Source of the DNA: Escherichia coli
GTDB lineage: Bacteria > Pseudomonadota > Gammaproteobacteria > Enterobacterales > Enterobacteriaceae
DNA: 64,000 nucleotides
Direction: 5' to 3' (one strand)
Assembly (NCBI RefSeq): GCF_016903815.1
Contig: NZ_CP069974.1
The notes beneath the pieces were generated by a model. It was not told where the DNA came from and did not search any database. It was given only the letters and a program-made list of their open reading frames with translations. A program made the position numbers and the translations under genes. The first letter of the stretch is position 1. Each line of letters starts with the position of its first letter. Below, piece after piece: positions 16,805-44,228 of the stretch.

Positions 16805-17392
16805 GTTTTCAGCCCCCATCATCTGTTGAGTTTCGGGAGCCGCGGTTTTGACGTTTTGCGGGGACCTGCCTTTTGTTCCCTCCGGTATTCACCATCACCT
16901 TTTTGAGAACCTTCGCCGCAAGGGGCATCACTGCCACGGACGGAAACGACTGTCCGGGGGCAGACCGCAAAAGTTTTTGCCTGCTTCTGGGCAAAAAGTT
17001 TTGCGGGATGTGCATTTCACCCCTGGACTGGCGGAGACGGTTGTGGCTGTCTTTGCCCCCGGCGACAGGGGCTTAAACAGGTGAATGGCACCGGACAGAA
17101 CAACGGGCAGGGACCCGCCGCAACGACGTGAAGCGCGGTTTGCGAAACGGCGTTGCCCCTTACATCCCGGCGGTCTTTTGCCGGGATGCCAGGAGCGCAG
17201 GCCACGGCGCGACAGAGGCGGCGCGACCGGAACGGTCGCTGCAAGCCAGGGGTTTTCACGCATCGGACCGTAGCGACAGCCCGAAACCGCGCCAGCGGGT
17301 TCGGCGGAGACTGGCAGGTGCGCCAGCAGCTGCCTGTCGGAGTCGGGCCTGACGACCGGATGCCGCCAGGCAGCCGGGAGCCGAAGGTGCGC
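16805..17392 (-). promoter_or_regulatory. GC-rich leading-region hairpin repeat, copy A1 (Frpo/ssi-like)
   Basis: About 590 nt, nearly identical to 28590-29177 and diverged from 34284-34848. Outer arms 16840-16870 / 17106-17138 enclose an inner 17-bp hairpin at 16965-17006. Overlapping ORFs on both strands are taken as non-coding. Confidence 0.6.
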
Positions 17393-28568: not shown

Positions 28569-28589
28569 GATGTGCCTCCTTCTGTTGAT

Positions 28590-29177
28590 GTTTTCAGCCC
28601 CCATCATCTTTTGAGTTTCGGGAGCCGCGGTTTTGACGTTTTGCGGGGACCTGCCTTTTGTTCCCTCCGGTATTCACCATCACCTTTTTGAGAACCTTCG
28701 CCGCATGGGGCATCACTGCCACGGACGGAAACGACTGTCCGGGGGCAGACCGCAAAAGTTTTTGCCTGCTTCTGGGCAAAAAGTTTTGCGGGATGTGCAT
28801 TTCACCCCTGGACTGGCGGAGACGGTTGTGGCTGTCTTTGCCCCCGGCGACAGGGGCTTAAACAGGTGAATGGCACCGGACAGAACAACGGGCAGGGACC
28901 CGCCGCAACGACGTGAAGCGCGGTTTGCGAAACGGCGTTGCCCCTTACATCCCGGCGGTCTTTTGCCGGGATGCCAGGAGCGCAGGCCACGGCGCGACAG
29001 AGGCGGCGCGACCGGAACGGTCGCTGCAAGCCAGGGGTTTTCACGCATCGGACCGTAGCGACAGCCCGAAACCGCGCCAGCGGGTTCGGCGGAGACTGGC
29101 AGGTGCGCCAGCAGCTGCCTGTCGGAGTCGGGCCTGACGACCGGATGCCGCCAGGCAGCCGGGAGCCGAAGGTGCGC
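28590..29177 (-). promoter_or_regulatory. GC-rich leading-region hairpin repeat, copy A2 (Frpo/ssi-like), upstream of ssb
   Basis: Offset +11785 from A1, with only a couple of substitutions seen by eye. It starts 22 nt from the ssb ATG. Confidence 0.6.
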
Positions 29178-31520
29178 GTGCGACAGGAAGTCGCTTAACG
29201 TATTGTTTTACATTGATAAAACCAGCTATCCCATTAGCTGTAGCCTACCGGGACAGGCGTTGCCGGCAACGGCGGGGTCTGAAGCTCCCGGGACAACGAG
29301 AGCCGGGCGTCAGCCCGGGTAATGCCCCGTGAGGGGCTTTACCTTGCTGCAAGCATCATGCGGCAGGAGAGCAAGGCTGGTCAGAAGGGTTAACACATGT
29401 GAACTGTTGATAAACACCGTTATCGGCAACAGGCCAAAGATGCTGACAGGCCTGAACCAAAAGGTACGGGGTCCGGTTGCTACCTCGCGCACAGGGAGCA
29501 CATGGGCGCAGAGACCCCCGGTGAAGAGACAGAACCCGCCCTGACCCTCTGTATGTTAAGCGGAACCTGGTAAACCCGTATCGCTGCCTCACAGGCAGGT
29601 GAACCGCAAGGAACACTGTTAGCGGTGCGGGCATAGGAGGACGGAAAAAGCGAATGCCCGGCTGTAATAACCGGGATACGGGGCAGGTTCCCCGACGCGA
29701 AAGCGGGCAGACTTCCGTCTGGTCTTTAATTGCATGAAAAGCTGTAAAGCAGTCAAAAGGATATCAGCGAGATGAATACACACATCAGTGTGTCCACGAT
29801 ACCCCACCCGACAGGCTGGCACACCATAAACTGGAAAGCATGCCATGCCCGGGTGCGAAAGCTACAGTTACGGATTGCAAAGGCAACCCGACAGCAACAA
29901 TGGCGGCAGGTCAGAGAACTACAGCGCATCCTCACCCGCTCATTCTCCGGCAAAGCCGTGGCTGTCAGGCGTGTAACTGAAAATACCGGTAAAAGGACAC
30001 CCGGTATTGACGGAAAAATATGGCACACACCGAAGGAGAAATGGGAAGGAATATGCAGCCTGAATCTGTGTGGTTACAGGCCACAGCCACTACGGCGAAT
30101 ACATATCCCAAAATCAAACGGCAAAACGCGACCGCTGGGCATACCCACAATGAGGGACCGGGCCATGCAGGCACTGTGGCTGCTGGCTCTGGAACCCGTA
30201 TCCGAGACCACTGCTGACCATAACAGCTATGGTTTCAGACCAATGCGCAGCACGCATGACGCCATTGAGTCCATTTTTCTGCGGATGAGCCAGAAAGTAT
30301 CGCCCAAATGGATACTGGAGGGCGATATTAAAGGGTGCTTCGATAACATCAGCCATGACTGGCTGCTTTCCCATATTCCGATGGACAGGAGACTGCTTAA
30401 AAAATGGTTGAAAGCAGGTTACATGGAAAGAGGCGTGTTTAACCATACGAACAGCGGGACACCGCAGGGAGGCATCATATCCCCTGTTCTCGCCAACATG
30501 GCTCTGGACGGACTGGAGAAGGAACTGATGCAAACGTTCAGGAAAAGTGGTTATCACAGTGCAAAGCACCAGGTGAATTATGTGAGATATGCTGATGATT
30601 TCATCTGTTCAGGCAGCTCCCGTGAATTGCTGGAAAATGAGGTCAGACCACTGATTGCAGCTTTCATGCGCGAACGAGGGCTGGAACTGTCGGAAGAAAA
30701 AACAGCGATCACACATATAGATAAAGGCTTCGACTTTTTAGGGCAGAACGTCAGGAAGTACAACGGTAAAATGCTGATTAAACCGTCGAAGAAAAACCTG
30801 AAGAACTTCCTCTGTAAAGTCAGAGAAATAATTAAACGCAATCCGACGCTCCCGGCATGGAAACTGATAGGCCAGCTAAACCCGGTGATCCGGGGATGGG
30901 CTACCTATCACCGACACGTCGTGGCGAAAGAAACATTTAATTATGTCGACACCCAAATCTGGCGAGCTATATGGCGATGGTGTGTAAGACGGCATCCCCG
31001 GAAAGGATTGCGGTGGATCGCCGGACGATACTTCTCCTTTGAAGGCAGGCGCTGGATCTTTAAAGCCATAACCCCGGAAGGGAAAATTCTGACACTCTTC
31101 CGGGCAATGGAAACACCGATAAAGCGCCATATAAAAATCAAAGGCGAAGCAACACCATACACCCCCGGAATGGAAATCTACTTTGAACGTCGTCTGGATC
31201 TAATCTGGAAAGGCAAATCAAAGAAGATGAAGACAGTAGTTCAACTCTGGAAGAGGCAGGGGAAACACTGTCCGCAGTGCGGACAACTCATAACCAACCA
31301 GACCGGATGGAATATACATCACCGGATCAGGAAAGTTATGGGCGGCAGTGACGAACTGACCAATCTCGAGTTGTTACATCCGAACTGCCACCGACAGTTA
31401 CACAGCAGGGAAGCCGGTGCTCACCGAAAGCACTTATAAAGGCTTGAGCGGAGTGCGGGGAAACTCGCACGCTCCGTTCTTAGGGGGCGGCGGCGCAGCA
31501 ATGTGCCGCTGCTACCCGAC
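29178..31520 (+). mobile_element. group II intron, type 1, copy 2
   Basis: Same sequence and same insertion point as copy 1 (…GCCGAAGGTGCGC | intron | CCGGCAGACAGG…). Confidence 0.85.
29772..31439 (+). CDS. group II intron-encoded protein (RT-maturase-HNH), copy 2
   Basis: The 555-aa track translation is identical to copy 1. Confidence 0.9.
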   Translation: MNTHISVSTIPHPTGWHTINWKACHARVRKLQLRIAKATRQQQWRQVRELQRILTRSFSGKAVAVRRVTENTGKRTPGIDGKIWHTPKEKWEGICSLNLCGYRPQPLRRIHIPKSNGKTRPLGIPTMRDRAMQALWLLALEPVSETTADHNSYGFRPMRSTHDAIESIFLRMSQKVSPKWILEGDIKGCFDNISHDWLLSHIPMDRRLLKKWLKAGYMERGVFNHTNSGTPQGGIISPVLANMALDGLEKELMQTFRKSGYHSAKHQVNYVRYADDFICSGSSRELLENEVRPLIAAFMRERGLELSEEKTAITHIDKGFDFLGQNVRKYNGKMLIKPSKKNLKNFLCKVREIIKRNPTLPAWKLIGQLNPVIRGWATYHRHVVAKETFNYVDTQIWRAIWRWCVRRHPRKGLRWIAGRYFSFEGRRWIFKAITPEGKILTLFRAMETPIKRHIKIKGEATPYTPGMEIYFERRLDLIWKGKSKKMKTVVQLWKRQGKHCPQCGQLITNQTGWNIHHRIRKVMGGSDELTNLELLHPNCHRQLHSREAGAHRKHL

Positions 31521-31577
31521 CCGGCAGACAGGACAACACTGCAGTAGTCAGAATCAGAGCAGCAGGAAAAAGAAGAA

Positions 31578-31616
31578 CAGTAGCAGTAGCAGTAGCAGTA
31601 GCAGTAGCAGTAGCAG
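31578..31616. repeat. hexanucleotide microsatellite (CAGTAG)x6 plus CAG
   Basis: Read directly: cagtag repeated six times. It is absent from the equivalent position beside intron copies 1 and 3. Confidence 0.95.
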
Positions 31617-31791
31617 GAACAACAACATCAGTAACAGACAAATGACAGGCATGAAGAAACAGAAGCCCCCATCAGAACGTCCGCGTAATGAAAGGGGCGG
31701 CGCGTGAGCGCGGCCCCTTTCAGCGCCACCGGCGCGCGTTTTTTCCCGGCGCGGGCAGACAGGCATTTATCCTCCCGCCGGCCCTGTGTCA

Positions 31792-32355
31792 TCAGGCACG
31801 CAGACGAATAATCATCGTCGGGACATCGGTATAAGCAAACGTGCCGCGCGGCAGCTCCTCGCGGACGTCAGAAAACGGTAACAGCTTCTCCTGCTGGCGT
31901 GGTCCGTTGAGACAGACGGCGACCAGCACGCCACCCGGACGCAACAGGGAAAAGGCCCGCAGGATATGCCGGATATCCTGCCCGTGGCTGAACGGCGGAT
32001 TCATGATAACCCGGCTGTAATACTGCACCGGCAGCCATTCCATGAAGTCGCCACACTGAACCCTGACACCGTTAAAATTTTCCCGCAGATACCGGACCAG
32101 CCCGCTGTTGATTTCCACCGCATCACACATGGCCCCCGGCGCGGTATCCCGAATCGCCCGCAGTATGGCCCCGGTGCCGGCAGAGGGTTCCAGAATGTGA
32201 TCACGGTTGCTGATCTCCGCCAGCATCACCAGGCGATCACAGACCGGGGCAGGAGTCACAAAAAGCTGAGATTCAGCCCGGATTTCAGCAACCGGCGCGG
32301 CGTTATCCAGCCTTGCGCGCATCAGCCGGATACGTTCTCTTAACTGACTGTGCAT
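31792..32355 (-). CDS. orphan SAM-dependent methyltransferase (N6-adenine type, NPPF motif)
   Basis: 187 aa with motif I ILEPSAGTGAIL and motif IV VIMNPPFS. No restriction partner is adjacent. Confidence 0.75.
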   Translation of the reverse strand: MHSQLRERIRLMRARLDNAAPVAEIRAESQLFVTPAPVCDRLVMLAEISNRDHILEPSAGTGAILRAIRDTAPGAMCDAVEINSGLVRYLRENFNGVRVQCGDFMEWLPVQYYSRVIMNPPFSHGQDIRHILRAFSLLRPGGVLVAVCLNGPRQQEKLLPFSDVREELPRGTFAYTDVPTMIIRLRA

Positions 32356-32402
32356 ATCATTATCTCCGTCATCCCCCGGGGATTTTCCCGGGGGGATATA
32401 CC

Positions 32403-33764
32403 TTATTTCTGTGGGATTTCCGTGATTTTCATGTCGGAGATATACACATTCACCAGGCGGAAATTATTGTCCATTGTGCGGCGGTACCGGTATGCCCCGT
32501 GGTCTTCTGCTTCTGCCACACTGCGCACGGCCTTACAGTCCCGGGGCAGGGCGGCCCACTGTGCCTTTGTCATTTCCCGGAAACCTTCCCCCGGATAGTT
32601 GACTACCGGCGGACGCTTCGCGGCCTGACTGGCGACGGCAGCCTCTTCTGCCGATGGTGCTTTGTAGTCCGTGATGCGATCGGGCGTCACTTTCATCGTG
32701 CCGCTGTACCCGAGAAAACTGTAATTTGGCGTTGTGACTGAACTCACCGCCCCGTTGCTTTTGTTCACACGGATGATGGTCAGCCACTCGCCCCGGCTGA
32801 AAACCTGTCCGCCCGGCTCAAAATCCTGTGTCCGGGTAACCACGCCGCCGCTTTCGTCCAGCATGGCACGCTCATAGATCAGGCGGTTCTGATAGTGGTT
32901 AACCCAGCGTTGTTGATGCTGAATCTGCCGTTCATGACAGCGGATCGCAATTTCGCGGGCCTGCTCCGTGGTGATGATGTCATCATCCAGGGCCGACCAT
33001 AACGATCGACTTCCTTCATACTGGCTTTTTTCTGCCGGGCGCGGATACGTATCCAGCGGGAAACAGGCGCTGATATGGTCATGACTGCTGATGAGTTTTG
33101 CCATATTCAGATCCAGCGATTCAGCCCGCCACATCGTCAGATATTTCTGCGACTGCGCGATGGTCTTTTCAGCCTTGCGCAAATCAGCTTCGATTTTTTT
33201 GATACGACGCCAGCGAACGTCCGGACGTTCTTTATACTTCGCGTGAAGCAGTGCCGACCGCGCCCGCTCTTCCCAGTATTCCGCACGTTCAAAGAGCATC
33301 ACGGCTCGTTTCATGCCGTTTTCAATACGCTGCGCATCACGACGGGCGCGGCGTTCGCTGTGATGCCCCACAAGAATGGGCTGACCGGGCGGGATCATCG
33401 CGGCCAGTCTTTCCACTTCATCAAGTGCCTGTGCGGATTCACTGGCCCGCTTTCCGCTGTATCCGGTAAACCGCTCCGCCCGTGCTTCCTGACGTTCAGC
33501 GAGCGTGCTGTCTTCATCCTCAATCTCTCCGGCAAGTGAGAGGAGCACGTCTTCCCGGCCCGGTGTCCAGGCTGGCGCGACAAACAGCGCCTGTTTTGGT
33601 GCCCAGCGGAAACCGGCATCATGCACTTTTTTATACGTCTCCGGGTCAAGACGTGACACGGCATACAGGCGCAGTTTGTTGTCATCCGGTGAGTAGGTCG
33701 CGCGGTACATCTGCACAGGGCTGGCGGCTTCCGGGGCGGTCATGGTGATTGCTGCTAATGTCAT
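32403..33764 (-). CDS. DUF3560-like leading-region protein
   Basis: 453 aa. The pattern ...FRWAPKQALFVAPAWTPGREDVLL...GQPILVGHHSERRARRD... is recalled as DUF3560 of IncF leading regions. Confidence 0.6.
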   Translation of the reverse strand: MTLAAITMTAPEAASPVQMYRATYSPDDNKLRLYAVSRLDPETYKKVHDAGFRWAPKQALFVAPAWTPGREDVLLSLAGEIEDEDSTLAERQEARAERFTGYSGKRASESAQALDEVERLAAMIPPGQPILVGHHSERRARRDAQRIENGMKRAVMLFERAEYWEERARSALLHAKYKERPDVRWRRIKKIEADLRKAEKTIAQSQKYLTMWRAESLDLNMAKLISSHDHISACFPLDTYPRPAEKSQYEGSRSLWSALDDDIITTEQAREIAIRCHERQIQHQQRWVNHYQNRLIYERAMLDESGGVVTRTQDFEPGGQVFSRGEWLTIIRVNKSNGAVSSVTTPNYSFLGYSGTMKVTPDRITDYKAPSAEEAAVASQAAKRPPVVNYPGEGFREMTKAQWAALPRDCKAVRSVAEAEDHGAYRYRRTMDNNFRLVNVYISDMKITEIPQK

Positions 33765-33815
33765 AAAATGTTCTCCTTCCGTCTGTTGCCGCCCCTCGCG
33801 GGGCGGCTCACCTCA

Positions 33816-34046
33816 TCAGTTAAAAGCGCGTTTCAGTTCGAGTGTGCGGAGCACCTGCCCGAAGGCCGTGTTTTTCATGGCGGGGATGTGTACACCACGC
33901 CCCCGGTGAAAACTCCGGGCAATGTGTCGCCCGAAGGCTTTCAGCACGGGGTCAATTTCCGGCGCGGGGATGTCTTCGCGTCTGAAACGGGGATGACGGC
34001 GGGGCTTTACAGCCGCTGCGGAAGGTGAAACAATACTTACTGTCAT
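33816..34046 (-). CDS. hypothetical basic 76-aa protein
   Basis: ORF with RBS AAGAGG 7 nt before the ATG. First gene downstream (minus sense) of repeat A3. Confidence 0.5.
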   Translation of the reverse strand: MTVSIVSPSAAAVKPRRHPRFRREDIPAPEIDPVLKAFGRHIARSFHRGRGVHIPAMKNTAFGQVLRTLELKRAFN

Positions 34047-34283
34047 AATTTAGCCTCTTATGACGTTAATTAATGAAACCGTAAAGACTGTTCGTGCAGT
34101 CTCTGCGGTGTGGATTAAGCAGGTCCCTGACCTGCTTTTTTCATATCTGCGTCTGACGTTCTCCGGTGTTTTCCTCCTTCTGTTCCTGCGTTCTCATTAC
34201 CTGCCAGCCGGATGACTGACAGAACACATAAATGCGTATTGCCGGAGCCTGAAATAAATCCTGATTTTTAAAGAACATCACCC

Positions 34284-34848
34284 GTTGAGTTTCGGGAGCC
34301 GCGGTTTTGACGTTTCGCGGGAACCTGCTGCTGTATACCCTGTGGTATGAACTTCACCCGTTTGAGAACCTTCGCCGCAAGGGGCATCACTGCCACGGCC
34401 TGACGCACCTGTCCTGGGCAGAACGCAAAATTTTTTACCGGGTTTTGGGTAAAAAATTTTGTGGGCTGTTCATTTACCCTGGACAGTCAGTGCGGCAGGT
34501 TGTGGCTGTATCAGCCCCAGGCGACAGGGACTCATACGGGTGTGTGGCACCGGCAGGCAATGAGCAGGGACCCGCCGCAACGACGGAGAGCGCGTGCGCG
34601 AAACGGCGTTGCCCCTTACATCCCGGCGGCCTTTTGCCGGGATGCCGGGAGCGCAGGCCACGGCGCGACAAGGGTGGCGCGACCGGAACGGTCGCTGCAA
34701 GCCCGGGGTTTTCACGCATCGGACCGTAGCGACAGCCCGAAACCGCGCCAGCGGGTTCGGCGGAGACTGGCGGGTGCGCCAGCAGCTGCCTGTCGGAGTC
34801 GGGCCTGACGACCGGATGCCGCCAGGCAGCCGGGAGCCGAAGGTGCGC
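34284..34848 (-). promoter_or_regulatory. GC-rich leading-region hairpin repeat, copy A3 (diverged)
   Basis: Alignable to A1/A2 along its whole length with many substitutions. The inner hairpin 34424-34463 keeps pairing through compensatory changes. The last approx. 75 nt before the intron are identical to A1. Confidence 0.55.
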
Positions 34849-37191
34849 GTGCGACAGGAAGTCGCTTAACGTATTGTTTTACATTGATAAAACCAGCTAT
34901 CCCATTAGCTGTAGCCTACCGGGACAGGCGTTGCCGGCAACGGCGGGGTCTGAAGCTCCCGGGACAACGAGAGCCGGGCGTCAGCCCGGGTAATGCCCCG
35001 TGAGGGGCTTTACCTTGCTGCAAGCATCATGCGGCAGGAGAGCAAGGCTGGTCAGAAGGGTTAACACATGTGAACTGTTGATAAACACCGTTATCGGCAA
35101 CAGGCCAAAGATGCTGACAGGCCTGAACCAAAAGGTACGGGGTCCGGTTGCTACCTCGCGCACAGGGAGCACATGGGCGCAGAGACCCCCGGTGAAGAGA
35201 CAGAACCCGCCCTGACCCTCTGTATGTTAAGCGGAACCTGGTAAACCCGTATCGCTGCCTCACAGGCAGGTGAACCGCAAGGAACACTGTTAGCGGTGCG
35301 GGCATAGGAGGACGGAAAAAGCGAATGCCCGGCTGTAATAACCGGGATACGGGGCAGGTTCCCCGACGCGAAAGCGGGCAGACTTCCGTCTGGTCTTTAA
35401 TTGCATGAAAAGCTGTAAAGCAGTCAAAAGGATATCAGCGAGATGAATACACACATCAGTGTGTCCACGATACCCCACCCGACAGGCTGGCACACCATAA
35501 ACTGGAAAGCATGCCATGCCCGGGTGCGAAAGCTACAGTTACGGATTGCAAAGGCAACCCGACAGCAACAATGGCGGCAGGTCAGAGAACTACAGCGCAT
35601 CCTCACCCGCTCATTCTCCGGCAAAGCCGTGGCTGTCAGGCGTGTAACTGAAAATACCGGTAAAAGGACACCCGGTATTGACGGAAAAATATGGCACACA
35701 CCGAAGGAGAAATGGGAAGGAATATGCAGCCTGAATCTGTGTGGTTACAGGCCACAGCCACTACGGCGAATACATATCCCAAAATCAAACGGCAAAACGC
35801 GACCGCTGGGCATACCCACAATGAGGGACCGGGCCATGCAGGCACTGTGGCTGCTGGCTCTGGAACCCGTATCCGAGACCACTGCTGACCATAACAGCTA
35901 TGGTTTCAGACCAATGCGCAGCACGCATGACGCCATTGAGTCCATTTTTCTGCGGATGAGCCAGAAAGTATCGCCCAAATGGATACTGGAGGGCGATATT
36001 AAAGGGTGCTTCGATAACATCAGCCATGACTGGCTGCTTTCCCATATTCCGATGGACAGGAGACTGCTTAAAAAATGGTTGAAAGCAGGTTACATGGAAA
36101 GAGGCGTGTTTAACCATACGAACAGCGGGACACCGCAGGAAGGCATCATATCCCCTGTTCTCGCCAACATGGCTCTGGACGGACTGGAGAAGGAACTGAT
36201 GCAAACGTTCAGGAAAAGTGGTTATCACAGTGCAAAGCACCAGGTGAATTATGTGAGATATGCTGATGATTTCATCTGTTCAGGCAGCTCCCGTGAATTG
36301 CTGGAAAATGAGGTCAGACCACTGATTGCAGCTTTCATGCGCGAACGAGGGCTGGAACTGTCGGAAGAAAAAACAGCGATCACACATATAGATAAAGGCT
36401 TCGACTTTTTAGGGCAGAACGTCAGGAAGTACAACGGTAAAATGCTGATTAAACCGTCGAAGAAAAACCTGAAGAACTTCCTCTGTAAAGTCAGAGAAAT
36501 AATTAAACGCAATCCGACGCTCCCGGCATGGAAACTGATAGGCCAGCTAAACCCGGTGATCCGGGGATGGGCTACCTATCACCGACACGTCGTGGCGAAA
36601 GAAACATTTAATTATGTCGACACCCAAATCTGGCGAGCTATATGGCGATGGTGTGTAAGACGGCATCCCCGGAAAGGATTGCGGTGGATCGCCGGACGAT
36701 ACTTCTCCTTTGAAGGCAGGCGCTGGATCTTTAAAGCCATAACCCCGGAAGGGAAAATTCTGACACTCTTCCGGGCAATGGAAACACCGATAAAGCGCCA
36801 TATAAAAATCAAAGGCGAAGCAACACCATACACCCCCGGAATGGAAATCTACTTTGAACGTCGTCTGGATCTAATCTGGAAAGGCAAATCAAAGAAGATG
36901 AAGACAGTAGTTCAACTCTGGAAGAGGCAGGGGAAACACTGTCCGCAGTGCGGACAACTCATAACCAACCAGACCGGATGGAATATACATCACCGGATCA
37001 GGAAAGTTATGGGCGGCAGTGACGAACTGACCAATCTCGAGTTGTTACATCCGAACTGCCACCGACAGTTACACAGCAGGGAAGCCGGTGCTCACCGAAA
37101 GCACTTATAAAGGCTTGAGCGGAGTGCGGGGAAACTCGCACGCTCCGTTCTTAGGGGGCGGCGGCGCAGCAATGTGCCGCTGCTACCCGAC
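34849..37191 (+). mobile_element. group II intron, type 1, copy 3
   Basis: Same ends and same insertion point as copies 1 and 2. Confidence 0.85.
35443..37110 (+). CDS. group II intron-encoded protein, copy 3 (G-to-E change in an RT motif)
   Basis: 555 aa, identical to copies 1 and 2 except TPQGGIISP becomes TPQEGIISP (GGA to GAA near 36139). Confidence 0.85.
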   Translation: MNTHISVSTIPHPTGWHTINWKACHARVRKLQLRIAKATRQQQWRQVRELQRILTRSFSGKAVAVRRVTENTGKRTPGIDGKIWHTPKEKWEGICSLNLCGYRPQPLRRIHIPKSNGKTRPLGIPTMRDRAMQALWLLALEPVSETTADHNSYGFRPMRSTHDAIESIFLRMSQKVSPKWILEGDIKGCFDNISHDWLLSHIPMDRRLLKKWLKAGYMERGVFNHTNSGTPQEGIISPVLANMALDGLEKELMQTFRKSGYHSAKHQVNYVRYADDFICSGSSRELLENEVRPLIAAFMRERGLELSEEKTAITHIDKGFDFLGQNVRKYNGKMLIKPSKKNLKNFLCKVREIIKRNPTLPAWKLIGQLNPVIRGWATYHRHVVAKETFNYVDTQIWRAIWRWCVRRHPRKGLRWIAGRYFSFEGRRWIFKAITPEGKILTLFRAMETPIKRHIKIKGEATPYTPGMEIYFERRLDLIWKGKSKKMKTVVQLWKRQGKHCPQCGQLITNQTGWNIHHRIRKVMGGSDELTNLELLHPNCHRQLHSREAGAHRKHL

Positions 37192-37423
37192 CCGGCAGAC
37201 AGAACAACACTGCAGTAGTCAGAATCAGAGCAGCAGATAAAGGAACAACAACATCAGGAACAGTTCCATAACATAAGAAAGAAACACTCCTGAGTCAGAC
37301 ACATCACAGACGGGAAGGGTAACGGGCGACGCGCCAGCGTGGCCCGCTTCCCTTCCGGCAGGCGTCAGCCTGCCAGGGGTTTTCGCGCGGACTGACAGGC
37401 GGCCTCCACCGCCTGCCCCTGTA

Positions 37424-37615
37424 TCACCTGTTTCTGCTACCCTGTAAGATGTAGTGACCGCCCAGGAAAACCGCCTGCTGATTCGCCACAAAATCGCAGA
37501 TTTCATCAACAATCTGCGCGGTGGTGAGCGGTTTCTGCCCCATTTCACGACGCCGCGCATTAATCACGGCCCTGTAATTACGCAGAATTTCGCGGGTTTC
37601 TGTGCTGATATTCAT
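37424..37615 (-). CDS. hypothetical 63-aa protein
   Basis: The ATG overlaps the stop of the upstream DUF1380 gene (ATGA). Function not recognised. Confidence 0.45.
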   Translation of the reverse strand: MNISTETREILRNYRAVINARRREMGQKPLTTAQIVDEICDFVANQQAVFLGGHYILQGSRNR

Positions 37616-38034
37616 GACATCGTCTCCCCGTCCAGCGCCTGTAACACAACGTCCATTGCTTCGCGTTCCTCCCTGACGAATGCGTCACCGTCGCCCCCGT
37701 TCTCACTCCCGACGGCATACAGGCGCTTCATTTCACTGCCTGCCAGCGCCATCACTTTTTCCAGCATCACCGCCGGGACTGTCACCTGACGGCTGGCGCG
37801 CTTTTCTTCCATCAGTTCACGAACAACGCCGTGAACAACGCTGACATCCGCACCATATTCAAAGGCATCGTCCAGCCGCTGCATGACGGTTTCCAGCTCA
37901 TCGTCTGTCAGACTCCAGTCCTGGGCTATGTGACGCACATCCCCACGGGTCAGCACTACGGCAAAAACGCATTCACTGTCCGGCACGTCTGTATCCAGCA
38001 CTTCGCGGATAATTTCTTTAACAGTACAGTACAT
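37612..38034 (-). CDS. DUF1380-like protein (140 aa)
   Basis: MYCTVKEIIREVLDTDVPDSECVFAVVLTRGDVRHIAQDW.... Paralogous in layout to 39750-40184 (both contain ...RQVTVPA..L...). Confidence 0.55.
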   Translation of the reverse strand: MYCTVKEIIREVLDTDVPDSECVFAVVLTRGDVRHIAQDWSLTDDELETVMQRLDDAFEYGADVSVVHGVVRELMEEKRASRQVTVPAVMLEKVMALAGSEMKRLYAVGSENGGDGDAFVREEREAMDVVLQALDGETMS

Positions 38035-38080
38035 GTTCTCGTCTCCTTTACAGGGGCGGCATTGCCGCCCCGTCCGTTAA

Positions 38081-38506
38081 TCAGTCCAGAGCCGCGTAAA
38101 TCGCGTTGCATTCGGGGTGAAATTCGATGTGACGCCACAACTGCGCATCGCGCATCCGGTAAAGCTGGGTCAGTCCTGCATCCCCGCTGTCGTGGTACAG
38201 CCACAACTGGCGGTTAATCACAAGGGAGGTCAGGATGATGCCTGCGGCATCAGCACTCACGGTACGGTCAAACCAGTTTGCACCGTTCACCATGTGGAAA
38301 CGGTCGCCATCCGGCATCATGTAACCGCCACCGTCCGGCAGGCGGATGAAGTGCCAGAAGCCTCCCTGATATTCCGGCATCATTTTTTGCGCCAGCGCGT
38401 ACACATACGCCTCGGCATACAGAAAATCGTTGCCAAACAGATACGGCAGAAAGGAGAGACGGTCGCACTCTTCAACATTCAGAGTGACAGGTTTCGCATA
38501 TTGCAT
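38081..38506 (-). CDS. klcA: KlcA/ArdB-family antirestriction protein
   Basis: 141 aa [65 protein letters not shown].... Confidence 0.85.
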
Positions 38507-38548
38507 GATGTTTTCCTCCGTTGTTCACATATTCCGCGACACCGGGCG

Positions 38549-38774
38549 GTGCCGTGCCTCCATAAAAGCCGGGCGAACAGGCGGGGATGCAGGGGCGCAA
38601 GGGAAGCCGCAGCCTGACGCACACGGCTGACGGGAGTTGCAGGGTGAGACCGCGAAATCTGAGCGGGTGAACGACCGGAAAATCACGGCAGACGGGAAGG
38701 AGGGACCGGGTGACCGCAGCGGCGAAGCGTACCCTTGCATCAACGCCAGCCCGGCTAAGATGGAGGCACGGCAC
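38549..38774 (-). promoter_or_regulatory. Frpo-like single-strand promoter hairpin B1 upstream of klcA
   Basis: 15-bp perfect basal stem GTGCCGTGCCTCCAT / ATGGAGGCACGGCAC. The 3' arm carries TTGCAT (38735-38740), N15, then TAAGAT (38756-38761). AAG of the -10 faces AAA on the 5' arm, giving a 3-nt bubble. The base lies about 45 nt from the klcA ATG. Confidence 0.55.
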
Positions 38775-38922
38775 AGCCCGCACACGACGCTGAGGCCACA
38801 TAACTGAAAAACCACAAGGCCATGCCCTGCATGGCCGGGTAAAGCGGAGCCGGCGGCGACTTCCTTTGTGCTCTGTCCGGGGACCGGCAGGAAAAAGGCG
38901 GGGATTTACCCCGCCAGTGTCA

Positions 38923-39750
38923 TCATTTCCGGATTTTTGCCAGGGCATCCGCCATGCTGCGGATTTCGGTCCGGGCTTCCCGGACCACCTCCCGCAGAAC
39001 ACCACGGTCAAACCAGCGGCGGGGCGGTTCATCCGGTATACGCAGCACATCGCAGGCCAGCCCACTGGACAGGATATGCTCAATACACTCACTGACCAGA
39101 TACATTTCCACCGACGAAAAACGTGCTCCCCGGTTCACGATGGCATCGAGCACCACGGGCAGGTTTTCGTCATCTTCATCGAGCCAGCAGGGGTGATCGC
39201 TTTCCTTCACGACCAGGCGAAAGCGGCGCGTCTGGCGGGTCAGCAACGTCTGACCGGTGGTGGTCAGCGCCGCACGGATACGCCGCGCATCTTCTGCCAC
39301 CTGGTAACAGATGCTTCGTACCGCATCGTGCACCGCATCAAGAACAGCCCTGATTTCGTCTTCGGTCAGCCATTCTCCGGCATACGGGAAAGACACCTGC
39401 GTTCCGTCTGCCGGAAGTACCGGCAGCGACTGCCACTGACTGCCGGACAGTACCAGTTCCGCCCCGGTTCCGGTCAGTCTCTGAATGGCGGAGGCCAGGA
39501 GCGGCGGCAGTACGCCGCCGTGACGGTTGATAAGTAACGTCGCCAGCCGGGGCGCATCCAGCCGCACGTAAATGCTGATCCAGCCCGGATAGTTCGGATT
39601 TCGCTGGTCAACATCCGTCTCTTCCGGCCAGCCCTGCGCCAGCAGCAGGTTACGGGCGTGACGACAAATCAGTGCGTTCAGCGTGCTGTTTTCGTTCATG
39701 ATTAAGCGTTCTCCCTGTATCGCCGCCCGCAGGGCAGGCGGCGATAACAT
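38923..39750 (-). CDS. hypothetical protein (275 aa; alternative start 39699 gives 258 aa)
   Basis: The ATG at 39750 overlaps the upstream stop (TGATG). The alternative [11 protein letters not shown] start has RBS GGGAGA. No motif recognised. Confidence 0.55.
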
Positions 39751-40184
39751 CAGTTGTTTTCGTGTGTGTTGTTTTTCAGCAGGGTGCGGGCCTGATTAAC
39801 CACCGCCTGACGGCGGGTAACGCATTCCGGGACGGCGAGGCCGTTATCACGGGCGGCCCACTCACGTTTCCACAGTGCCTGTTCAGCGGTCTGAATCAGG
39901 GACGCCAGCAGTTCAGCAGGGACGGTCACCTGGCGGTTTTCGCTCACGTTGCTGATAATCTCCATCACCGCGGCGGAAGAAATACCGGATTCAGTCCGCT
40001 GGTCTTCCGGGATGTCCTCCATGCGCGCCAGGACGGTCCTGATTTCATGATCGGTCAGAGAAATTTCCATACCGTCAGCCAGTGCCTGAATCTCTTCCGG
40101 GGACCAGATAACCAGCATCAGCGGCGCGTCTCCCGGATACTTTGCTGCCAGCTCCCGGCATAGCGTTTCGCATGTTCCGTACAT
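39750..40184 (-). CDS. DUF1380-like protein (144 aa)
   Basis: [52 protein letters not shown].... Confidence 0.55.
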
Positions 40185-40197
40185 TCTCGTCTCCTTC

Positions 40198-40419
40198 TCA
40201 ATCTTTGAAGCAGGAATCCAGTTCCAGAATTTCGGTATACGCCTCCATAAACAGGCGATTGGCGCGATACAGCGTCTGGCGTGTCAGGCGTTCAACAAGC
40301 ACATCGGAATCAAAGCGACAGCGATGCTCCATATCGTTCAGCCTGGCCCGAAGGTCACACATGGTGTTGGCCACCTCCGCCACGTCGGCGCGAAGTTTTT
40401 CGTGTCCGGCATAGTTCAT
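40198..40419 (-). CDS. hypothetical 73-aa protein
   Basis: ORF immediately after the methyltransferase stop, helical-looking, not recognised. Confidence 0.45.
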   Translation of the reverse strand: MNYAGHEKLRADVAEVANTMCDLRARLNDMEHRCRFDSDVLVERLTRQTLYRANRLFMEAYTEILELDSCFKD

Positions 40420-41103
40420 TTACGCAGCCTCCGGCATAAACCAGTCATCATTCGCGGCCCCCTGCTGCATGGCCCGTTGCACGGCGGCAAGGCGTTGCTG
40501 CCCGGCACGGTGATACTGCTCAAGCAGCTCGATACCGATATACCGGCGTCCGGACTGGAGGGCGGCGACGCAGGTTGAGCCGCTGCCTGCAAACGGGTCC
40601 AGCACAATTGCGTTCGGGTGTGTGAAGCTCTCAATCAGCGGTTGCAGGCTGGTAACGGGCTTTTCCGTCGGGTGATGACGATTGCCAGAATATTTCCAGC
40701 CCAGCACGTCCGGCAGCGGGTTTTGTGGCAGACGTGGACGGCCTTTTGCCAGGATGTAGGCGCATTCGTGGCGATAGCCCACATATGCGGCCTTCGATGT
40801 GTAGTTTTTGGTGAAGACCAGGTGACCAACAACGCTGAATCCCGCATTTTTCCAGGCGGCCATAAAGCGATCGACGCGGTTCCAGCCGTAGAAGCTCACC
40901 ATCAGCGCGTCTTTTTTGAGTACGCGGTACATTTCATTACAGGCCGGTTGCAGCCATTCATCGGTTTTATCGCCGGCGATGGTGCGCCCGGAACGGTCAC
41001 GAAAACCGACGAGATATGGCGGGTCAGTTAATATGAAATCAATGGCGTTATCAGGGATACGCGTCATAACATCGATGCAGTTACCAAGGACAAAACGGGA
41101 CAT
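40420..41103 (-). CDS. orphan DNA methyltransferase (beta-class N6A/N4C, DPPY)
   Basis: 227 aa with motif IV ILTDPPYL early and motif I VLDPFAGSGSTCVAA late. No cognate endonuclease is present. Confidence 0.85.
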   Translation of the reverse strand: MSRFVLGNCIDVMTRIPDNAIDFILTDPPYLVGFRDRSGRTIAGDKTDEWLQPACNEMYRVLKKDALMVSFYGWNRVDRFMAAWKNAGFSVVGHLVFTKNYTSKAAYVGYRHECAYILAKGRPRLPQNPLPDVLGWKYSGNRHHPTEKPVTSLQPLIESFTHPNAIVLDPFAGSGSTCVAALQSGRRYIGIELLEQYHRAGQQRLAAVQRAMQQGAANDDWFMPEAA

Positions 41104-41487
41104 AACAACGCTCCTTCTCTTACAGAGGGCACCGGGAGGGCCCCCCTGTGGTGCCCGTTCCCCGCTGCCTGTGGGCTGTTCACCGCGTCCGGTAACGGGT
41201 CAGGCCGACCGTGGAATATCGCAGCCGTCGTCTTTTTGACGGCGAGAATATGCCGCGAAAGCGGCTTGAAGGGCGTTCATCAGAAAAGGGCGACAGGCTG
41301 GCGTACACTGTCACCGGTGCCAGCCGGGAGCAGTAAAAGCGCCCGTCCCGTGCCCGCCGGACGCGGGACACTGACCACAGGCAGCGTTCCTGCCGCGCCG
41401 CGTCAGCCGGCGCAGTAAAAAGAGGAGCACGGCGACATCCTTTGTCGGAAAAGAAACGGGCGGTTGCCCGCCCGTCTCCGTCATACT

Positions 41488-42414
41488 TCATCCCCCGTAA
41501 TGCGCCACCTTGTCGACTATCCACTCCGGCGCGGTGACTTCCGGCAGCTCATCATCATCTGTCGGGGAAGACCATTCCAGTTCCCCCCACAGCACATCAA
41601 CAAGCTCTCCACGCTCATATCGCTGCCAGCCACAGAAATTGCAGCCCTGTTCGGCGTACCAGTGCTCCAGCGTGCAGCCGAAACGGCGGCTTAATTCTGC
41701 AACAACGTTGCTTTCCGGCTGACACCACGGCGTGTCGAAATCCACTTGAATGAAGTTTTCTCCCTGACGGCTGATATTCACCTCATACCCCACAGGCCAC
41801 TTCACGCCATACTGTTCCGTATACCAGTGATACGCAGAAGGAACACCGTTCAGAACACCACCGTTAAAGCCATTCACTTCAACATCCAGGCGGGTGGGCA
41901 GAACCGTCAGCAGGTCAAACGGCATGGTTTTTTCCGGCAGTACATTGTCACACAGACGGTTCCACCACACCGATACATCCTCGTTACTCCAGAAGCCACA
42001 CCAGTCACCTCTTTTTGCGGTGAAATGCACGGTGATGGTTTCCCTGACCTCATCCGGTAATCCTTCCCAGCGACGCTGGCCAGTACCACTCTGCAGCCAG
42101 AGTTCATGCAGCATCAGGCAGTTTTGCTCATCCAGCAGTACACCGTTCTGCAGGTGTGTCAGCCAGCGGGTGAACGCGATATTCTCCGGCGATACAACAC
42201 CACGTCCGGCATCCGTCAGTCCGGGGCACGGTTCAAACTGCACATCTTCAGTGGTCTGCAGAAGTCCGGCACTTCCGGCCAGAAACAGCTGAATACCTTC
42301 ATTTGTGGCGCGGCGATAAAGCGGTGTGACGGCACCGCTGGCCAGTCGTTTAATCTCAGCAATCTGTGCCGGTTCACCAGAAAAATGCATACGATTCGAG
42401 CACCAGTTTGGCAT
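41488..42414 (-). CDS. DUF1281-like protein (308 aa)
   Basis: Start MPNWCSNRMHFSG with RBS GAGAGGAG. The track ORF adds 15 upstream codons. Confidence 0.55.
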   Translation of the reverse strand: MPNWCSNRMHFSGEPAQIAEIKRLASGAVTPLYRRATNEGIQLFLAGSAGLLQTTEDVQFEPCPGLTDAGRGVVSPENIAFTRWLTHLQNGVLLDEQNCLMLHELWLQSGTGQRRWEGLPDEVRETITVHFTAKRGDWCGFWSNEDVSVWWNRLCDNVLPEKTMPFDLLTVLPTRLDVEVNGFNGGVLNGVPSAYHWYTEQYGVKWPVGYEVNISRQGENFIQVDFDTPWCQPESNVVAELSRRFGCTLEHWYAEQGCNFCGWQRYERGELVDVLWGELEWSSPTDDDELPEVTAPEWIVDKVAHYGG

Positions 42415-42446
42415 GGGAATTCTCCTCTCACATGCGGCCTCCATCA

Positions 42447-42607
42447 GGCCGTGCCGCACCTGTAACCGGGCGACCGCATACGAATGCAGGTGCGGCCCCG
42501 AAGCCGCAGCGCGTGGAGGAGGAACGACGAAACGTGACCGGGTGAGGAGGCCGGCGACAGCGACACACTTGCATCGGATGCAGCCCGGTTAACGTGCCGG
42601 CACGGCC
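42447..42607 (-). promoter_or_regulatory. Frpo-like single-strand promoter hairpin B2 upstream of the DUF1281 gene
   Basis: Arms GGCCGTGCCGCACCTGTAACCGGGC... / ...GCCCGGTTAACGTGCCGGCACGGCC. The 3' arm carries TTGCAT (42569-42574), N15, then TAACGT (42590-42595), with a bulge opposite the -10. Homologous to B1. Confidence 0.5.
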
Positions 42608-42789
42608 TGGGTAACCAGGTATTTTGTCCACATAACCGTGCGCAAAATGTTGTGGATAAGCAGGACACAGCAGCAATCCACAGCAGGCATACAACCGCAC
42701 ACCGAGGTTACTCCGTTCTACAGGTTACGACGACATGTCAATACTTGCCCTTGACAGGCATTGATGGAATCGTAGTCTCACGCTGATAG

Positions 42790-43175
42790 TCTGATCGACA
42801 ATACAAGTGGGACCGTGGTCCCAGACCGATAATCAGACCGACAACACGAGTGGGATCGTGGTCCCAGACTAATAATCAGACCGACGATACGAGTGGGACC
42901 GTGGTCCCAGACTAATAATCAGACCGACGATACGAGTGGGACCGTGGTCCCAGACTAATAATCAGACCGACGATACGAGTGGGACCATGGTCCCAGACTA
43001 ATAATCAGACCGACGATACGAGTGGGACCATGGTCCCAGACTAATAATCAGACCGACGATACGAGTGGGACCGTGGTCCCAGACTAATAATCAGACCGAC
43101 GATACGAGTGGGACCGTGGTCCCAGTCTGATTATCAGACCGACGATACAAGTGGAACAGTGGGCCCAGAGAGAAT
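42790..43175. repeat. sopC: sopC centromere: 43-bp direct repeats, 8 good plus 1 degenerate
   Basis: TGGGACC(G/A)TGGTCCCA cores at 42808, 42851, 42894, 42937, 42980, 43023, 43066 and 43109 (exact 43-nt spacing), plus a degenerate unit at 43152. Confidence 0.92.
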
Positions 43176-43256
43176 ATTCAGGCCAGTTATGCTTTCTGGC
43201 CTGTAACAAAGGACATTAAGTAAAGACAGATAAACGTAGACTAAAACGTGGTCGCA

Positions 43257-44228
43257 TCAGGGTGCTGGCTTTTCAAGTTCCTTAAGAATGGCCTCAATTT
43301 TCTCTATACACTCAGTTGGAACACGAGACCTGTCCAGGTTAAGCACCATTTTATCGCCCTTATACAATACTGTCGCTCCAGGAGCAAACTGATGTCGTGA
43401 GCTTAAACTAGTTCTTGATGCAGATGACGTTTTAAGCACAGAAGTTAAAAGAGTGATAACTTCTTCAGCTTCAAATATCACCCCAGCTTTTTTCTGCTCA
43501 TGAAGGTTAGATGCCTGCTGCTTAAGTAATTCCTCTTTATCTGTAAAGGCTTTTTGAAGTGCATCACCTGACCGGGCAGATAGTTCACCGGGGTGAGAAA
43601 AAAGAGCAACAACTGATTTAGGCAATTTGGCTGTGTTGATACAGCGGGTAATAATCTTACGTGAAATATTTTCCGCATCAGCCAGCGCAGAAATATTTCC
43701 AGCAAATTCATTCTGCAATCGGCTTGCATAACGCTGACCACGTTCATAAGCACTTGTTGGGCGATAATCGTTACCCAATCTGGATAATGCAGCCATCTGC
43801 TCATCATCCAGCTCGCCAACCAGAACACGATAATCACTTTCGGTAAGTGCAGCAGCTTTACGACGGCGACTCCCATCGGCAATTTCTATGACACCAGATA
43901 CTCTTCGACCGAACGCCGGTGTCTGTTGACCAGTCAGTAGAAAAGAAGGGATGAGATCATCCAGTGAGTCCTCAGTAAGCAGCTCCTGGTCACGTTCATT
44001 ACCTGACCATACCCGAGAGGTCTTCTCAACACTATCACCCCGGAGCACTTCAAGAGTAAACTTCACATCCCGACCACATACAGGCAAAGTAATGGCATTA
44101 CCGCGAGCCATTACTCCTACGCGCGCAATTAACGAATCCACCATCGGGGCAGCTGGTGTCGATAACGAAGTATCTCCAACCGGTTGAGTATTGAGCGTAT
44201 GTTTTGGAATAACAGGCGCACGCTTCAT
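43257..44228 (-). CDS. sopB: SopB (ParB-type partition protein)
   Basis: 323 aa [57 protein letters not shown].... Confidence 0.95.

Follow-up and report, generated by a model that had tools for sequence, protein, structure and literature searches.

Many of the uncharacterised protein families that are enriched in plasmid leading regions have been proposed to be anti-defence factors (Samuel et al., Nature 2024, PMC11541004). In pESBL and F, several such genes share operons with the antirestriction gene klcA and with the orphan methyltransferase gene M.EcoGIX, and RNA-seq has revealed that both operons are strongly induced in early transconjugants of the two plasmids (Wen et al., Nucleic Acids Research 2025, PMC12672017). 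The same study reported that transcription from these promoters starts on the single-stranded form, and it mapped the start sites of the class 3 and class 2 single-stranded DNA (ssDNA) promoters of pESBL by 5′ rapid amplification of cDNA ends. Here we analysed the corresponding region of an Escherichia coli plasmid (RefSeq assembly GCF_016903815.1, contig NZ_CP069974.1) within a stretch of 64,000 nucleotides (nt), hereafter the window, to whose positions all coordinates refer. An earlier note, made from the sequence alone, had proposed that a group of uncharacterised open reading frames (ORFs) at 32403-40419 and just beyond, interleaved with klcA and two orphan methyltransferases, are anti-defence candidates. 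We favour, with some reservation, a reading in which the region comprises three ssDNA-promoter operons of early accessory genes, in which the DUF3560 protein YdbA and a 187-residue methyltransferase (MTase187) form a split methylase, and in which the other ORFs act against recipient defence or stress systems.

The anti-defence idea for these families is already published and is not new. Supplementary Table 1 of PMC11541004 lists YcgB/DUF1380 (rank 7), YchA (rank 10) and YcjA (rank 14) as enriched, ‘Uncharacterized’ and located on the transferred strand, and the same table places DUF1281 at rank 27 and YdbA/DUF3560 at rank 28. We take ranks 1, 6 and 11 to be the ORFs of 76, 63 and 73 amino acids (aa) discussed below, an assignment made by position and size, not by sequence. 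In that table the families of the methyltransferase, YcgB, YchA and the presumed 73-aa protein are of much the same size (3388-3957), and their median positions follow one another (21-18). What we add is the split of YdbA, the link between YcgB and YchA, the start of YchA, the non-coding status of an annotated ORF at 41180-41524 and an operon map. The reading of YdbA as part of a split methyltransferase is the main new point and, like the YcgB-YchA fusions, is not spelled out in Samuel et al.

The part of the window between 30 and 44 kb matched at least 5000 plasmids in PLSDB, chiefly conjugative IncF plasmids from Escherichia, Klebsiella, Salmonella and Shigella. Identity to pM105_mF and to two other E. 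coli plasmids is 99.7%. Judging from the annotation of matching plasmids and from classical F, the block sits between sopAB/sopC and ssb-psiB, which corresponds to the half of the IncF leading region that is distal to oriT, where transfer originates. The genes traM, traY, traA to traB and an SLT gene lie at lower window coordinates, and the listed ORFs are all encoded on the − strand, pointing toward the tra side. With tra and oriT on the side of the lower coordinates, it is the + strand that is transferred, and the − strand ORFs are templated by it. F, pESBL (IncI1) and an IncK2/Z plasmid also have the block carrying the M.EcoGIX-type and klcA operons. The region thus has the features of a leading-region anti-defence island: it is located on the leading side of oriT, its genes use the transferred strand as template, and it encodes KlcA and an M.EcoGIX-type methylase, with ssb and psiB further along.

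YdbA and the 187-residue methyltransferase

YdbA (32403-33764, − strand, 453 aa) is a DUF3560 protein (PF12083; Pfam E 5e-37, 127.1 bits against a cut-off of 27.2). Directly behind it lies the gene for MTase187 (31792-32355, − strand, 187 aa), a class I S-adenosylmethionine (SAM) methyltransferase with EPSAGTG as motif I and VIMNPPF as motif IV. In an exhaustive search, relatives of YdbA formed 3883 clusters, and 692 clusters reached E ≤ 1e-30. Full-length relatives mostly measure 630-700 aa, with the homology to YdbA located in their first ~450 residues; the C-terminal remainder is a small methyltransferase domain of the SAM type that aligns to MTase187 (41% identity, E 2e-35 and 3e-39). Motifs I and IV of MTase187 are conserved in these fused proteins. 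The methyltransferase domain was present in 98 of 135 diverged YdbA representatives, always C-terminal to the YdbA part. A second data set of 80 species-level genome loci gave a consistent picture: the two parts were fused in 48, the methyltransferase was the next gene in 14 and lay 1.6 kb off in one, while 15 had none and 2 were cut by the contig end. The loci with split, adjacent genes belong to Enterobacterales and a few Burkholderiales, and there the two genes are 47-150 nt apart. The genetic linkage is thereby shown, and on these sequence comparisons YdbA and MTase187 are the split form of a protein that is a single chain in most relatives. By the same comparisons YdbA is the only listed ORF tied to a DNA methyltransferase by gene fusion and fission; for the others the case is one of guilt by association.

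Separately, we observed ydbA at 99% identity to this plasmid on contigs binned as Oscillibacter or Oscillospiraceae metagenome-assembled genomes, and on one contig of a Streptomyces assembly. These contigs almost certainly reflect contamination or mis-binning.

MTase187 consists of a catalytic domain only, without a recognition domain. Its nearest solved relative in a PDB search is the catalytic domain of M.TaqI (E 1.4e-5), and in PADLOC it matches mad2 (E 6e-21) and Type II methyltransferases. We hypothesize that MTase187 is the catalytic half of a two-piece gamma-class N6-adenine DNA methyltransferase, for which we infer the activity, the substrate and the complex, and that YdbA is probably the non-catalytic half of this second orphan enzyme. 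Because MTase187 has no recognition domain of its own, we propose YdbA as the targeting module, which would supply DNA binding or targeting. In our model the two proteins together would methylate the plasmid as it enters, beside M.EcoGIX, and would thereby weaken restriction. A more specific version, which we offer tentatively and hold to be less probable than the general one, is that YdbA loads a recognition-less N6-methyladenine (m6A) methylase onto the entering strand or the new duplex, and that the DUF1380/YchA pair, the 73-, 63- and 76-aa proteins and DUF1281 each neutralise a different defence outside classical restriction (such as BREX, Wadjet-like or abortive systems).

Structure prediction followed by a fold search, as the earlier note had recommended, gave a model for YdbA and only generic coiled coils as matches. 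The AlphaFold2 model (predicted local distance difference test, pLDDT, 72.8) consists of a small α/β domain, three long helices corresponding to DUF3560, a further helical segment and a small β-barrel. Foldseek searches with this model returned nothing below E 0.29 against the PDB and nothing below E 0.02 against viral structures, where the matches to phage methylases and polyvalent proteins were weak and not significant. Sequence and profile searches of the PDB also gave no match for YdbA, YchA, YcgB or a profile of the YcgB-YchA fusion.

In Acidobacteria, Bradyrhizobium, Ottowia and an uncultured proteobacterium, YdbA homologues are located beside ArdC, SSB, RepB primase, ParB/KorB, DUF932, SRAP and a Mom-family protein, and one YdbA relative carries the polyvalent-protein domain LPD29. 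These neighbours, together with LPD29, suggest that the association of YdbA with early entry and anti-restriction is old and broad. Closer to this plasmid, a Raoultella plasmid retains the gene order 76aa-DUF3560-MTase-ssb.

Putative hairpin promoters and operon layout

The earlier note had placed the ORFs in operons headed by hairpin promoters, and we observed such hairpins in front of three operons. In the first, the class 3 ssDNA-promoter hairpin (inverted repeat I2; 41163-41386, + strand, arms 41163-41192 and 41357-41386) lies upstream of the M.EcoGIX-type gene and is followed by MT227-73aa-YcgB-YchA, MT227 being the product of that gene; an intrinsic-terminator-like hairpin after YchA (38897-38915, − strand) closes the operon. 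In the second, the class 2 hairpin (inverted repeat I1; 38543-38780, + strand, arms 38543-38574 and 38749-38780) lies upstream of klcA and heads KlcA-YcjA-63aa. In the third, an Frpo-like, class 1 ssDNA-promoter element (34276-34712, + strand) heads 76aa-YdbA-MT187, to which a 54-aa ORF may be added. This basic ORF (31628-31792, − strand) is annotated in RefSeq and overlaps the stop codon of MTase187 by one base (TGATG). The claim is not supported for the DUF1281 gene, which is located upstream of the most distal ssDNA promoter; the region before it is structured and conserved but folds more weakly (z = -3.3), and no hairpin promoter was recognised there.

Folded as ssDNA and compared with shuffled sequence, the + strand gave z = -6.0 for 41104-41487, -4.4 for 38507-38922 and -6.0 for 34047-34712. 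Aligned over their full length with the corresponding pESBL spacers, the 384-nt spacer 41104-41487 shows 96.1% identity to the one upstream of M.EcoGIX and the 416-nt spacer 38507-38922 shows 96.4% to the one upstream of klcA, so that the hairpin spacers (~96%) are conserved equally to or more than the neighbouring genes (79-98% identity to pESBL). In the class 2 stem, eight compensatory pairs preserve pairing in diverged copies linked to ArdA. The Frpo-like element is 92% identical to the Frpo region of F, which lies upstream of ssb between the 63-aa ORF and that gene, and it has paralogous copies at 28569-29041 and 16805-17256. Canonical −35 and −10 boxes were sought in the hairpin arms, with no convincing placement. 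Matches to double-stranded sigma70-like promoters were depleted across 31500-43300 (2 against 6.4 ± 2.3 expected in shuffled sequence), which fits a region that relies on ssDNA promoters.

We hypothesize that the hairpins fold into promoter-like duplexes while the entering DNA is single-stranded, giving a burst of expression in the recipient, and that they would vanish once the complementary strand is made, so that expression would stop. For this plasmid we infer the mechanism from the 96% identity to the pESBL and F homologues in which it was demonstrated. Early-acting expression, as the earlier note had suggested, is well supported for the M.EcoGIX-type and klcA operons, which are near-identical to the induced operons of pESBL and F (promoters 96%, ORFs 79-98%); the published expression data cover these two operons.

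The third operon carries an additional element. Its first gene behind the Frpo-like promoter is the basic 76-aa ORF (33816-34046, − strand, isoelectric point (pI) 11.9), whose product probably belongs to the YdaB family. The antisense RNA AS-pc01 (Rfam RF02875; 34041-34140, + strand; 98.9 bits, gathering score 79), originally reported from plasmid pHK01, overlaps the Shine-Dalgarno motif and start codon of this ORF. It comes with a sigma70-like promoter (34006-34034) and a terminator (34117-34137) of its own. After the plasmid has become double-stranded, AS-pc01 could keep the 76aa-YdbA-MTase operon silent. A short cis-antisense RNA with promoter and terminator over the ribosome-binding site and start of a small ORF resembles hok/sok, and one might thus take the pair for a type I toxin-antitoxin or addiction module, not an early effector. 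We consider this very improbable: unlike membrane-active type I toxins, the 76-aa protein is hydrophilic and very basic (grand average of hydropathy -0.36), and its gene heads an operon with YdbA and the methyltransferase in an order conserved as far as Raoultella. As the protein is not a small hydrophobic toxin, we rejected the toxin reading on composition.

The other ORFs of the region

All of the ORFs listed in the earlier note were present at their coordinates on the − strand, and the NPPF (VIMNPPF) and DPPY (TDPPY) motifs of the two methyltransferases were confirmed. To judge their coding status, each ORF was compared with seven other plasmids (F, pESBL-like and others) in all three frames, and the ratio of nonsynonymous to synonymous polymorphism (pN/pS) was calculated. 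Every listed ORF gave a pN/pS of 0.11-0.35 in the annotated frame (YdbA 0.21, the 76-aa ORF 0.13) and above 1 in both other frames, and every one is preceded by a Shine-Dalgarno motif. Each of the three small ORFs of 76, 73 and 63 aa has full-length matches in at least 5000 plasmids, and identity of the 76- and 73-aa proteins falls to 60-80% in Klebsiella, Raoultella, Yersinia and others. The listed ORFs are real, conserved genes under purifying selection in their own frame.

The same region also contains an annotated frame that does not behave in this way. A RefSeq ‘hypothetical protein’ at 41180-41524 (− strand), which is also annotated in F, pESBL and many plasmids, overlies the class 3 hairpin and has a pN/pS of 1.25, for which we rejected its coding status; it is probably an annotation artefact. 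This case, the unconserved extension of YchA described below and the lack of a phenotype of transposon insertions in K-12 could be taken to mean that some or all of the ORFs are non-functional, either chance frames or decaying hitch-hikers in a recombination-prone region. Constraint confined to the annotated frame, the Shine-Dalgarno motifs, full-length conservation across genera and backbones, and membership in PHROG and Pfam families largely refute the chance-frame account, and we regard it as scarcely credible.

We next considered the M.EcoGIX-type operon. Its first gene (40420-41103, − strand) encodes a known beta-class DPPY methyltransferase of 227 aa with the motif TDPPY, has 92.8% nucleotide identity to M.EcoGIX of pESBL, and has CcrM, RsrI and DpnA as PDB relatives. 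M.EcoGIX itself is a promiscuous enzyme that produces m6A on single strands in an SAY context (PMC7736820). In the present operon the methyltransferase gene is followed by the 73-aa ORF (40198-40419, − strand; PHROG 4830, E 1e-36; pN/pS 0.24), which abuts the methyltransferase stop, by YcgB (DUF1380, PF07128; 39750-40184, − strand; Pfam E 5.5e-53, 179.2 bits against a cut-off of 26; pI 4.7; pN/pS 0.35) and by YchA (38923-39699, − strand, 258 aa; no Pfam family; PHROG 8919, E 7e-139; pN/pS 0.30). The gene set MTase-73aa-YcgB-YchA is kept in F, pESBL, the IncK2/Z plasmid and a Klebsiella plasmid. Several protein clusters contain natural in-frame YcgB-YchA fusions of 375 aa, joined at a short repeated QAR(T/N)LL motif, and these fusions link YcgB and YchA functionally, so that we take the two to act together. 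AlphaFold2 modelling of the fusion from a 44-row alignment gave a mean pLDDT of 42.5, too low for a fold search; the two families are too narrow, as every homologue that could be retrieved shares 82% identity or more.

The earlier note had given YchA two possible lengths, 258 and 275 aa. The gene is real and its true start is at 39699, giving 258 aa. This start is preceded by a GGAG motif and a perfect hairpin (39718-39744). We rejected the 275-aa start, as the 17-codon extension has 5-nt indels in other plasmids and is bypassed by the natural fusions. As a further observation, the 73-aa ORF comes in two allelic types whose nucleotide sequences differ by about 20% and which do not track the flanking genes; the copy in this plasmid is 79% identical to those of pESBL and the IncK2/Z plasmid, against 93-97% for its neighbours. 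This pattern points to recombination or diversifying pressure.

The klcA operon begins with the known gene of a KlcA/ArdB-type antirestriction protein (38081-38506, − strand; Pfam Antirestrict, E 1.5e-26), followed by YcjA (37612-38034, − strand; pI 4.3; pN/pS 0.31) and, as last gene, the 63-aa ORF (37424-37615, − strand; pN/pS 0.21). YcjA is a DUF1380-like protein whose Pfam score stays below the threshold (23.7 bits, cut-off 26); still, the earlier view of YcjA and YcgB as two DUF1380-like paralogues holds, as they align in BLASTP with 28% identity (E 3e-10). The 63-aa ORF overlaps the YcjA stop codon by 4 nt. Translational coupling, which had been suggested for several genes, is seen here (ATGA), between MT227 and the 73-aa ORF (TAAATG) and between MT187 and the 54-aa ORF (TGATG), and is tight nowhere else. 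Beyond the M.EcoGIX-type operon, the DUF1281 gene (41488-42414, − strand) encodes a protein of the Api92 family with DUF1281 and DUF1281_C domains (166.5 and 56.1 bits; Pfam E 5.8e-49; pI 4.6; pN/pS 0.28). It aligns to Api92 (PDB 2IJR) over residues 3-274 (E 1.7e-50), and because this alignment begins at residue 3, we favour a start at 42414 over the shorter RefSeq start.

The conserved orders MTase-73aa-YcgB-YchA and KlcA-YcjA-63aa, with their abutting or overlapping junctions and with one DUF1380 paralogue in each operon, suggest another role for the small and acidic ORFs, namely that of accessory or regulatory partners (chaperones, specificity factors or timers) of M.EcoGIX and KlcA. The published M.EcoGIX knockout was a cassette replacement and may have been polar on the three downstream ORFs, which would leave room for such partners. 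M.EcoGIX expressed alone from cloning vectors, however, methylates ssDNA (PMC7736820), and because the cloned enzyme works alone the three downstream ORFs are dispensable for its catalysis. In a Klebsiella plasmid, moreover, a 63-aa-like ORF lies directly after ArdA, not KlcA, and YcjA is absent, which argues that the partners are exchangeable. We judge the partner role to be improbable.

Searches for known families gave few leads. NCBIfam had no family for the uncharacterised ORFs, and none of the eight (0/8) matched a defence-system model in PADLOC, where only the two methyltransferases did. Sub-threshold Pfam matches of the 76-aa (HU-CCDC81), 63-aa (DUF7420) and 73-aa (GOLGA2L5) proteins were not used. 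YcgB, YcjA and DUF1281 are strongly acidic (pI 4.3-4.7), like known DNA mimics, and Pfam and NCBIfam searches gave no match of the three to the ArdA or Ocr families.

One relevant experiment is the transposon insertion sequencing of pESBL. Hp8-Hp13, the orthologues of DUF1281 (Hp8), the 73-aa ORF (Hp9), YcgB (Hp10), YchA (Hp11), YcjA (Hp12) and the 63-aa ORF (Hp13), each came out as ‘non-essential 1.00’, both for plasmid maintenance and in transfer between K-12 strains (PMC4288162). M.EcoGIX received the same score, and its effect of up to 1000-fold was seen only with recipients carrying EcoRI or EcoGIII (PMC4288162). Because the non-essentiality of Hp8-Hp13 mirrors that of M.EcoGIX, housekeeping roles are unlikely, and conditional roles fit. 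Consequently, our model treats the uncharacterised ORFs as genuine accessory proteins that would matter only in some recipients.

The K-12 result is equally compatible with a role in establishment unrelated to immunity, such as strand handling, priming or delay of the complementary strand, or host reprogramming of the kind described for YfjB/HerB. This leading-region ParB-like protein reprograms host transcription and offsets the cost of acquisition (PMC13370423); SSB and PsiB are also encoded in leading regions, and the basic 76-aa protein and the distant neighbours of YdbA (SSB, RepB primase, ParB) fit DNA handling. Set against this, the operons are built around the known anti-restriction genes KlcA and M.EcoGIX, and YdbA is physically tied to a DNA-methyltransferase domain. 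Deletion of the promoter ssp2 from F had no effect between isogenic K-12 strains and an effect of at least 21-fold in non-isogenic hosts, which the authors relate to restriction-modification-type systems; that experiment concerns ssp2 and the ArdB-like yfgB, not the operons studied here. We regard a purely establishment-related role as unlikely, although it carries more weight with us than the partner role discussed above. Most likely, YcgB, YchA, YcjA, DUF1281 and the 73-, 63- and 76-aa proteins would inhibit defence or stress systems of the recipient or act as decoys for them, a proposal that we draw from context.

Some observations weigh against our combined reading of a split methylase and anti-defence ORFs. 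Fifteen of the 80 YdbA loci have no detectable methyltransferase nearby, so YdbA may also act alone or with other partners. MTase187 is also weakly similar to rRNA and protein methyltransferases. Classical F does not have the 76aa-YdbA-MTase operon at all, and pESBL likewise lacks it at the corresponding position. Cloned M.EcoGIX is active without the three ORFs downstream of it (PMC7736820), and literature searches using DUF numbers and F/R100 gene names turned up no study of what these ORFs do. Finally, folding of the Frpo-like hairpin might be altered in this plasmid by the group II intron inserted about 170 nt upstream of it.

Group II introns and comparison with known systems

This leading region contains three group II introns. 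Copy 2 (~2.5 kb, ~34713-37240, + strand, ltrA 35443-37110) was recognised by the Rfam D1-D4 and domain V/VI models and by empty-site comparison; it lies between the Frpo-like element and the klcA operon, inside 32403-40419 and antisense to the leading-region genes. The near-identical copy 1 (~29042-31569, + strand, ltrA 29772-31439) lies ~220 nt below the MTase187 gene at the lower end of the region. Both boundaries are approximate and derive from empty sites in two of the loci compared and in F, and from the comparison of the two copies. Relative to two paralogous Frpo-like elements the copies are placed alike, each just upstream; they are in sense orientation on the transferred strand, antisense to the leading-region genes, and share a near-identical 5′ flank of ~100 nt; the third Frpo-like copy (16805-17256) has no intron. 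Such an intron jumped into an IncI leading region during experimental evolution (Benz & Hall, PNAS 2023). This suggests that the introns home to a target within ssDNA promoters or adjacent to them. We also considered whether an intron splits the Frpo-like hairpin and rejected this, as it is located ~170 nt upstream.

Two side observations concern the surroundings of the introns. A third intron of a different type (~25869-27916, − strand) lies between ssb and the first Frpo-like element; it matches Rfam RF00029 at 25869-25989, and its ltrA of ~633 aa was mapped from the annotation of pM105_mF. A short tandem tract resembling (GCAGTA)n at 31552-31637, just 3′ of copy 1, overlaps the 3′ end of the 54-aa ORF, and a related shorter sequence is found at 37229-37263, 3′ of copy 2.

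Thousands of resistance plasmids of the IncF, IncI and IncK types carry the ORFs described here, which belong to the earliest genes that a new host expresses. If the more specific version given above, with a loading role of YdbA and a separate target for each of the other proteins, is true, a stretch of 10 kb encodes several unrecognised anti-defence families on thousands of these plasmids. Knowledge of their functions would explain how such plasmids get past the barriers between strains, and might point to means of limiting their spread or of improving vectors for conjugative delivery. The YdbA split and the YcgB-YchA link turn two candidates of the field into specific, testable hypotheses.

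Among known systems, the early operons of pESBL and F (Wen et al.; Yamaichi et al., Nucleic Acids Research 2015; Fomenkov et al., Nucleic Acids Research 2020) are the closest, with the common order DUF1281-hairpin-DPPY methylase-73aa-DUF1380-YchA-hairpin-KlcA-DUF1380-63aa. Compared with them, this plasmid adds the third operon 76aa-YdbA-MTase and the group II introns. The anti-defence islands of Samuel et al. are alike in their adjacency to oriT, their orientation on the transferred strand and their content, in which anti-restriction genes and orphan methylases are combined with SSB and uncharacterised families; the families discussed here are known there from enrichment alone, and neither the YdbA split nor the YcgB-YchA fusions appear.

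For the individual proteins, the nearest counterparts of the YdbA pair are the single-chain DUF3560-methyltransferases and the large polyvalent proteins that conjugative elements and phages encode, with 38-57% identity over the YdbA body and 34-48% over the methyltransferase domain, whereas here the two parts are separate genes. Api92 (PDB 2IJR), a structural-genomics protein, is the homologue of the DUF1281 ORF and likewise has no assigned function. With the gamma-class enzymes of the M.TaqI type, MTase187 shares the catalytic Rossmann domain, motif I and the NPPF/Y motif IV. M.TaqI has its own C-terminal DNA-recognition domain; MTase187, in contrast, does not, and we propose that YdbA would fill this role.

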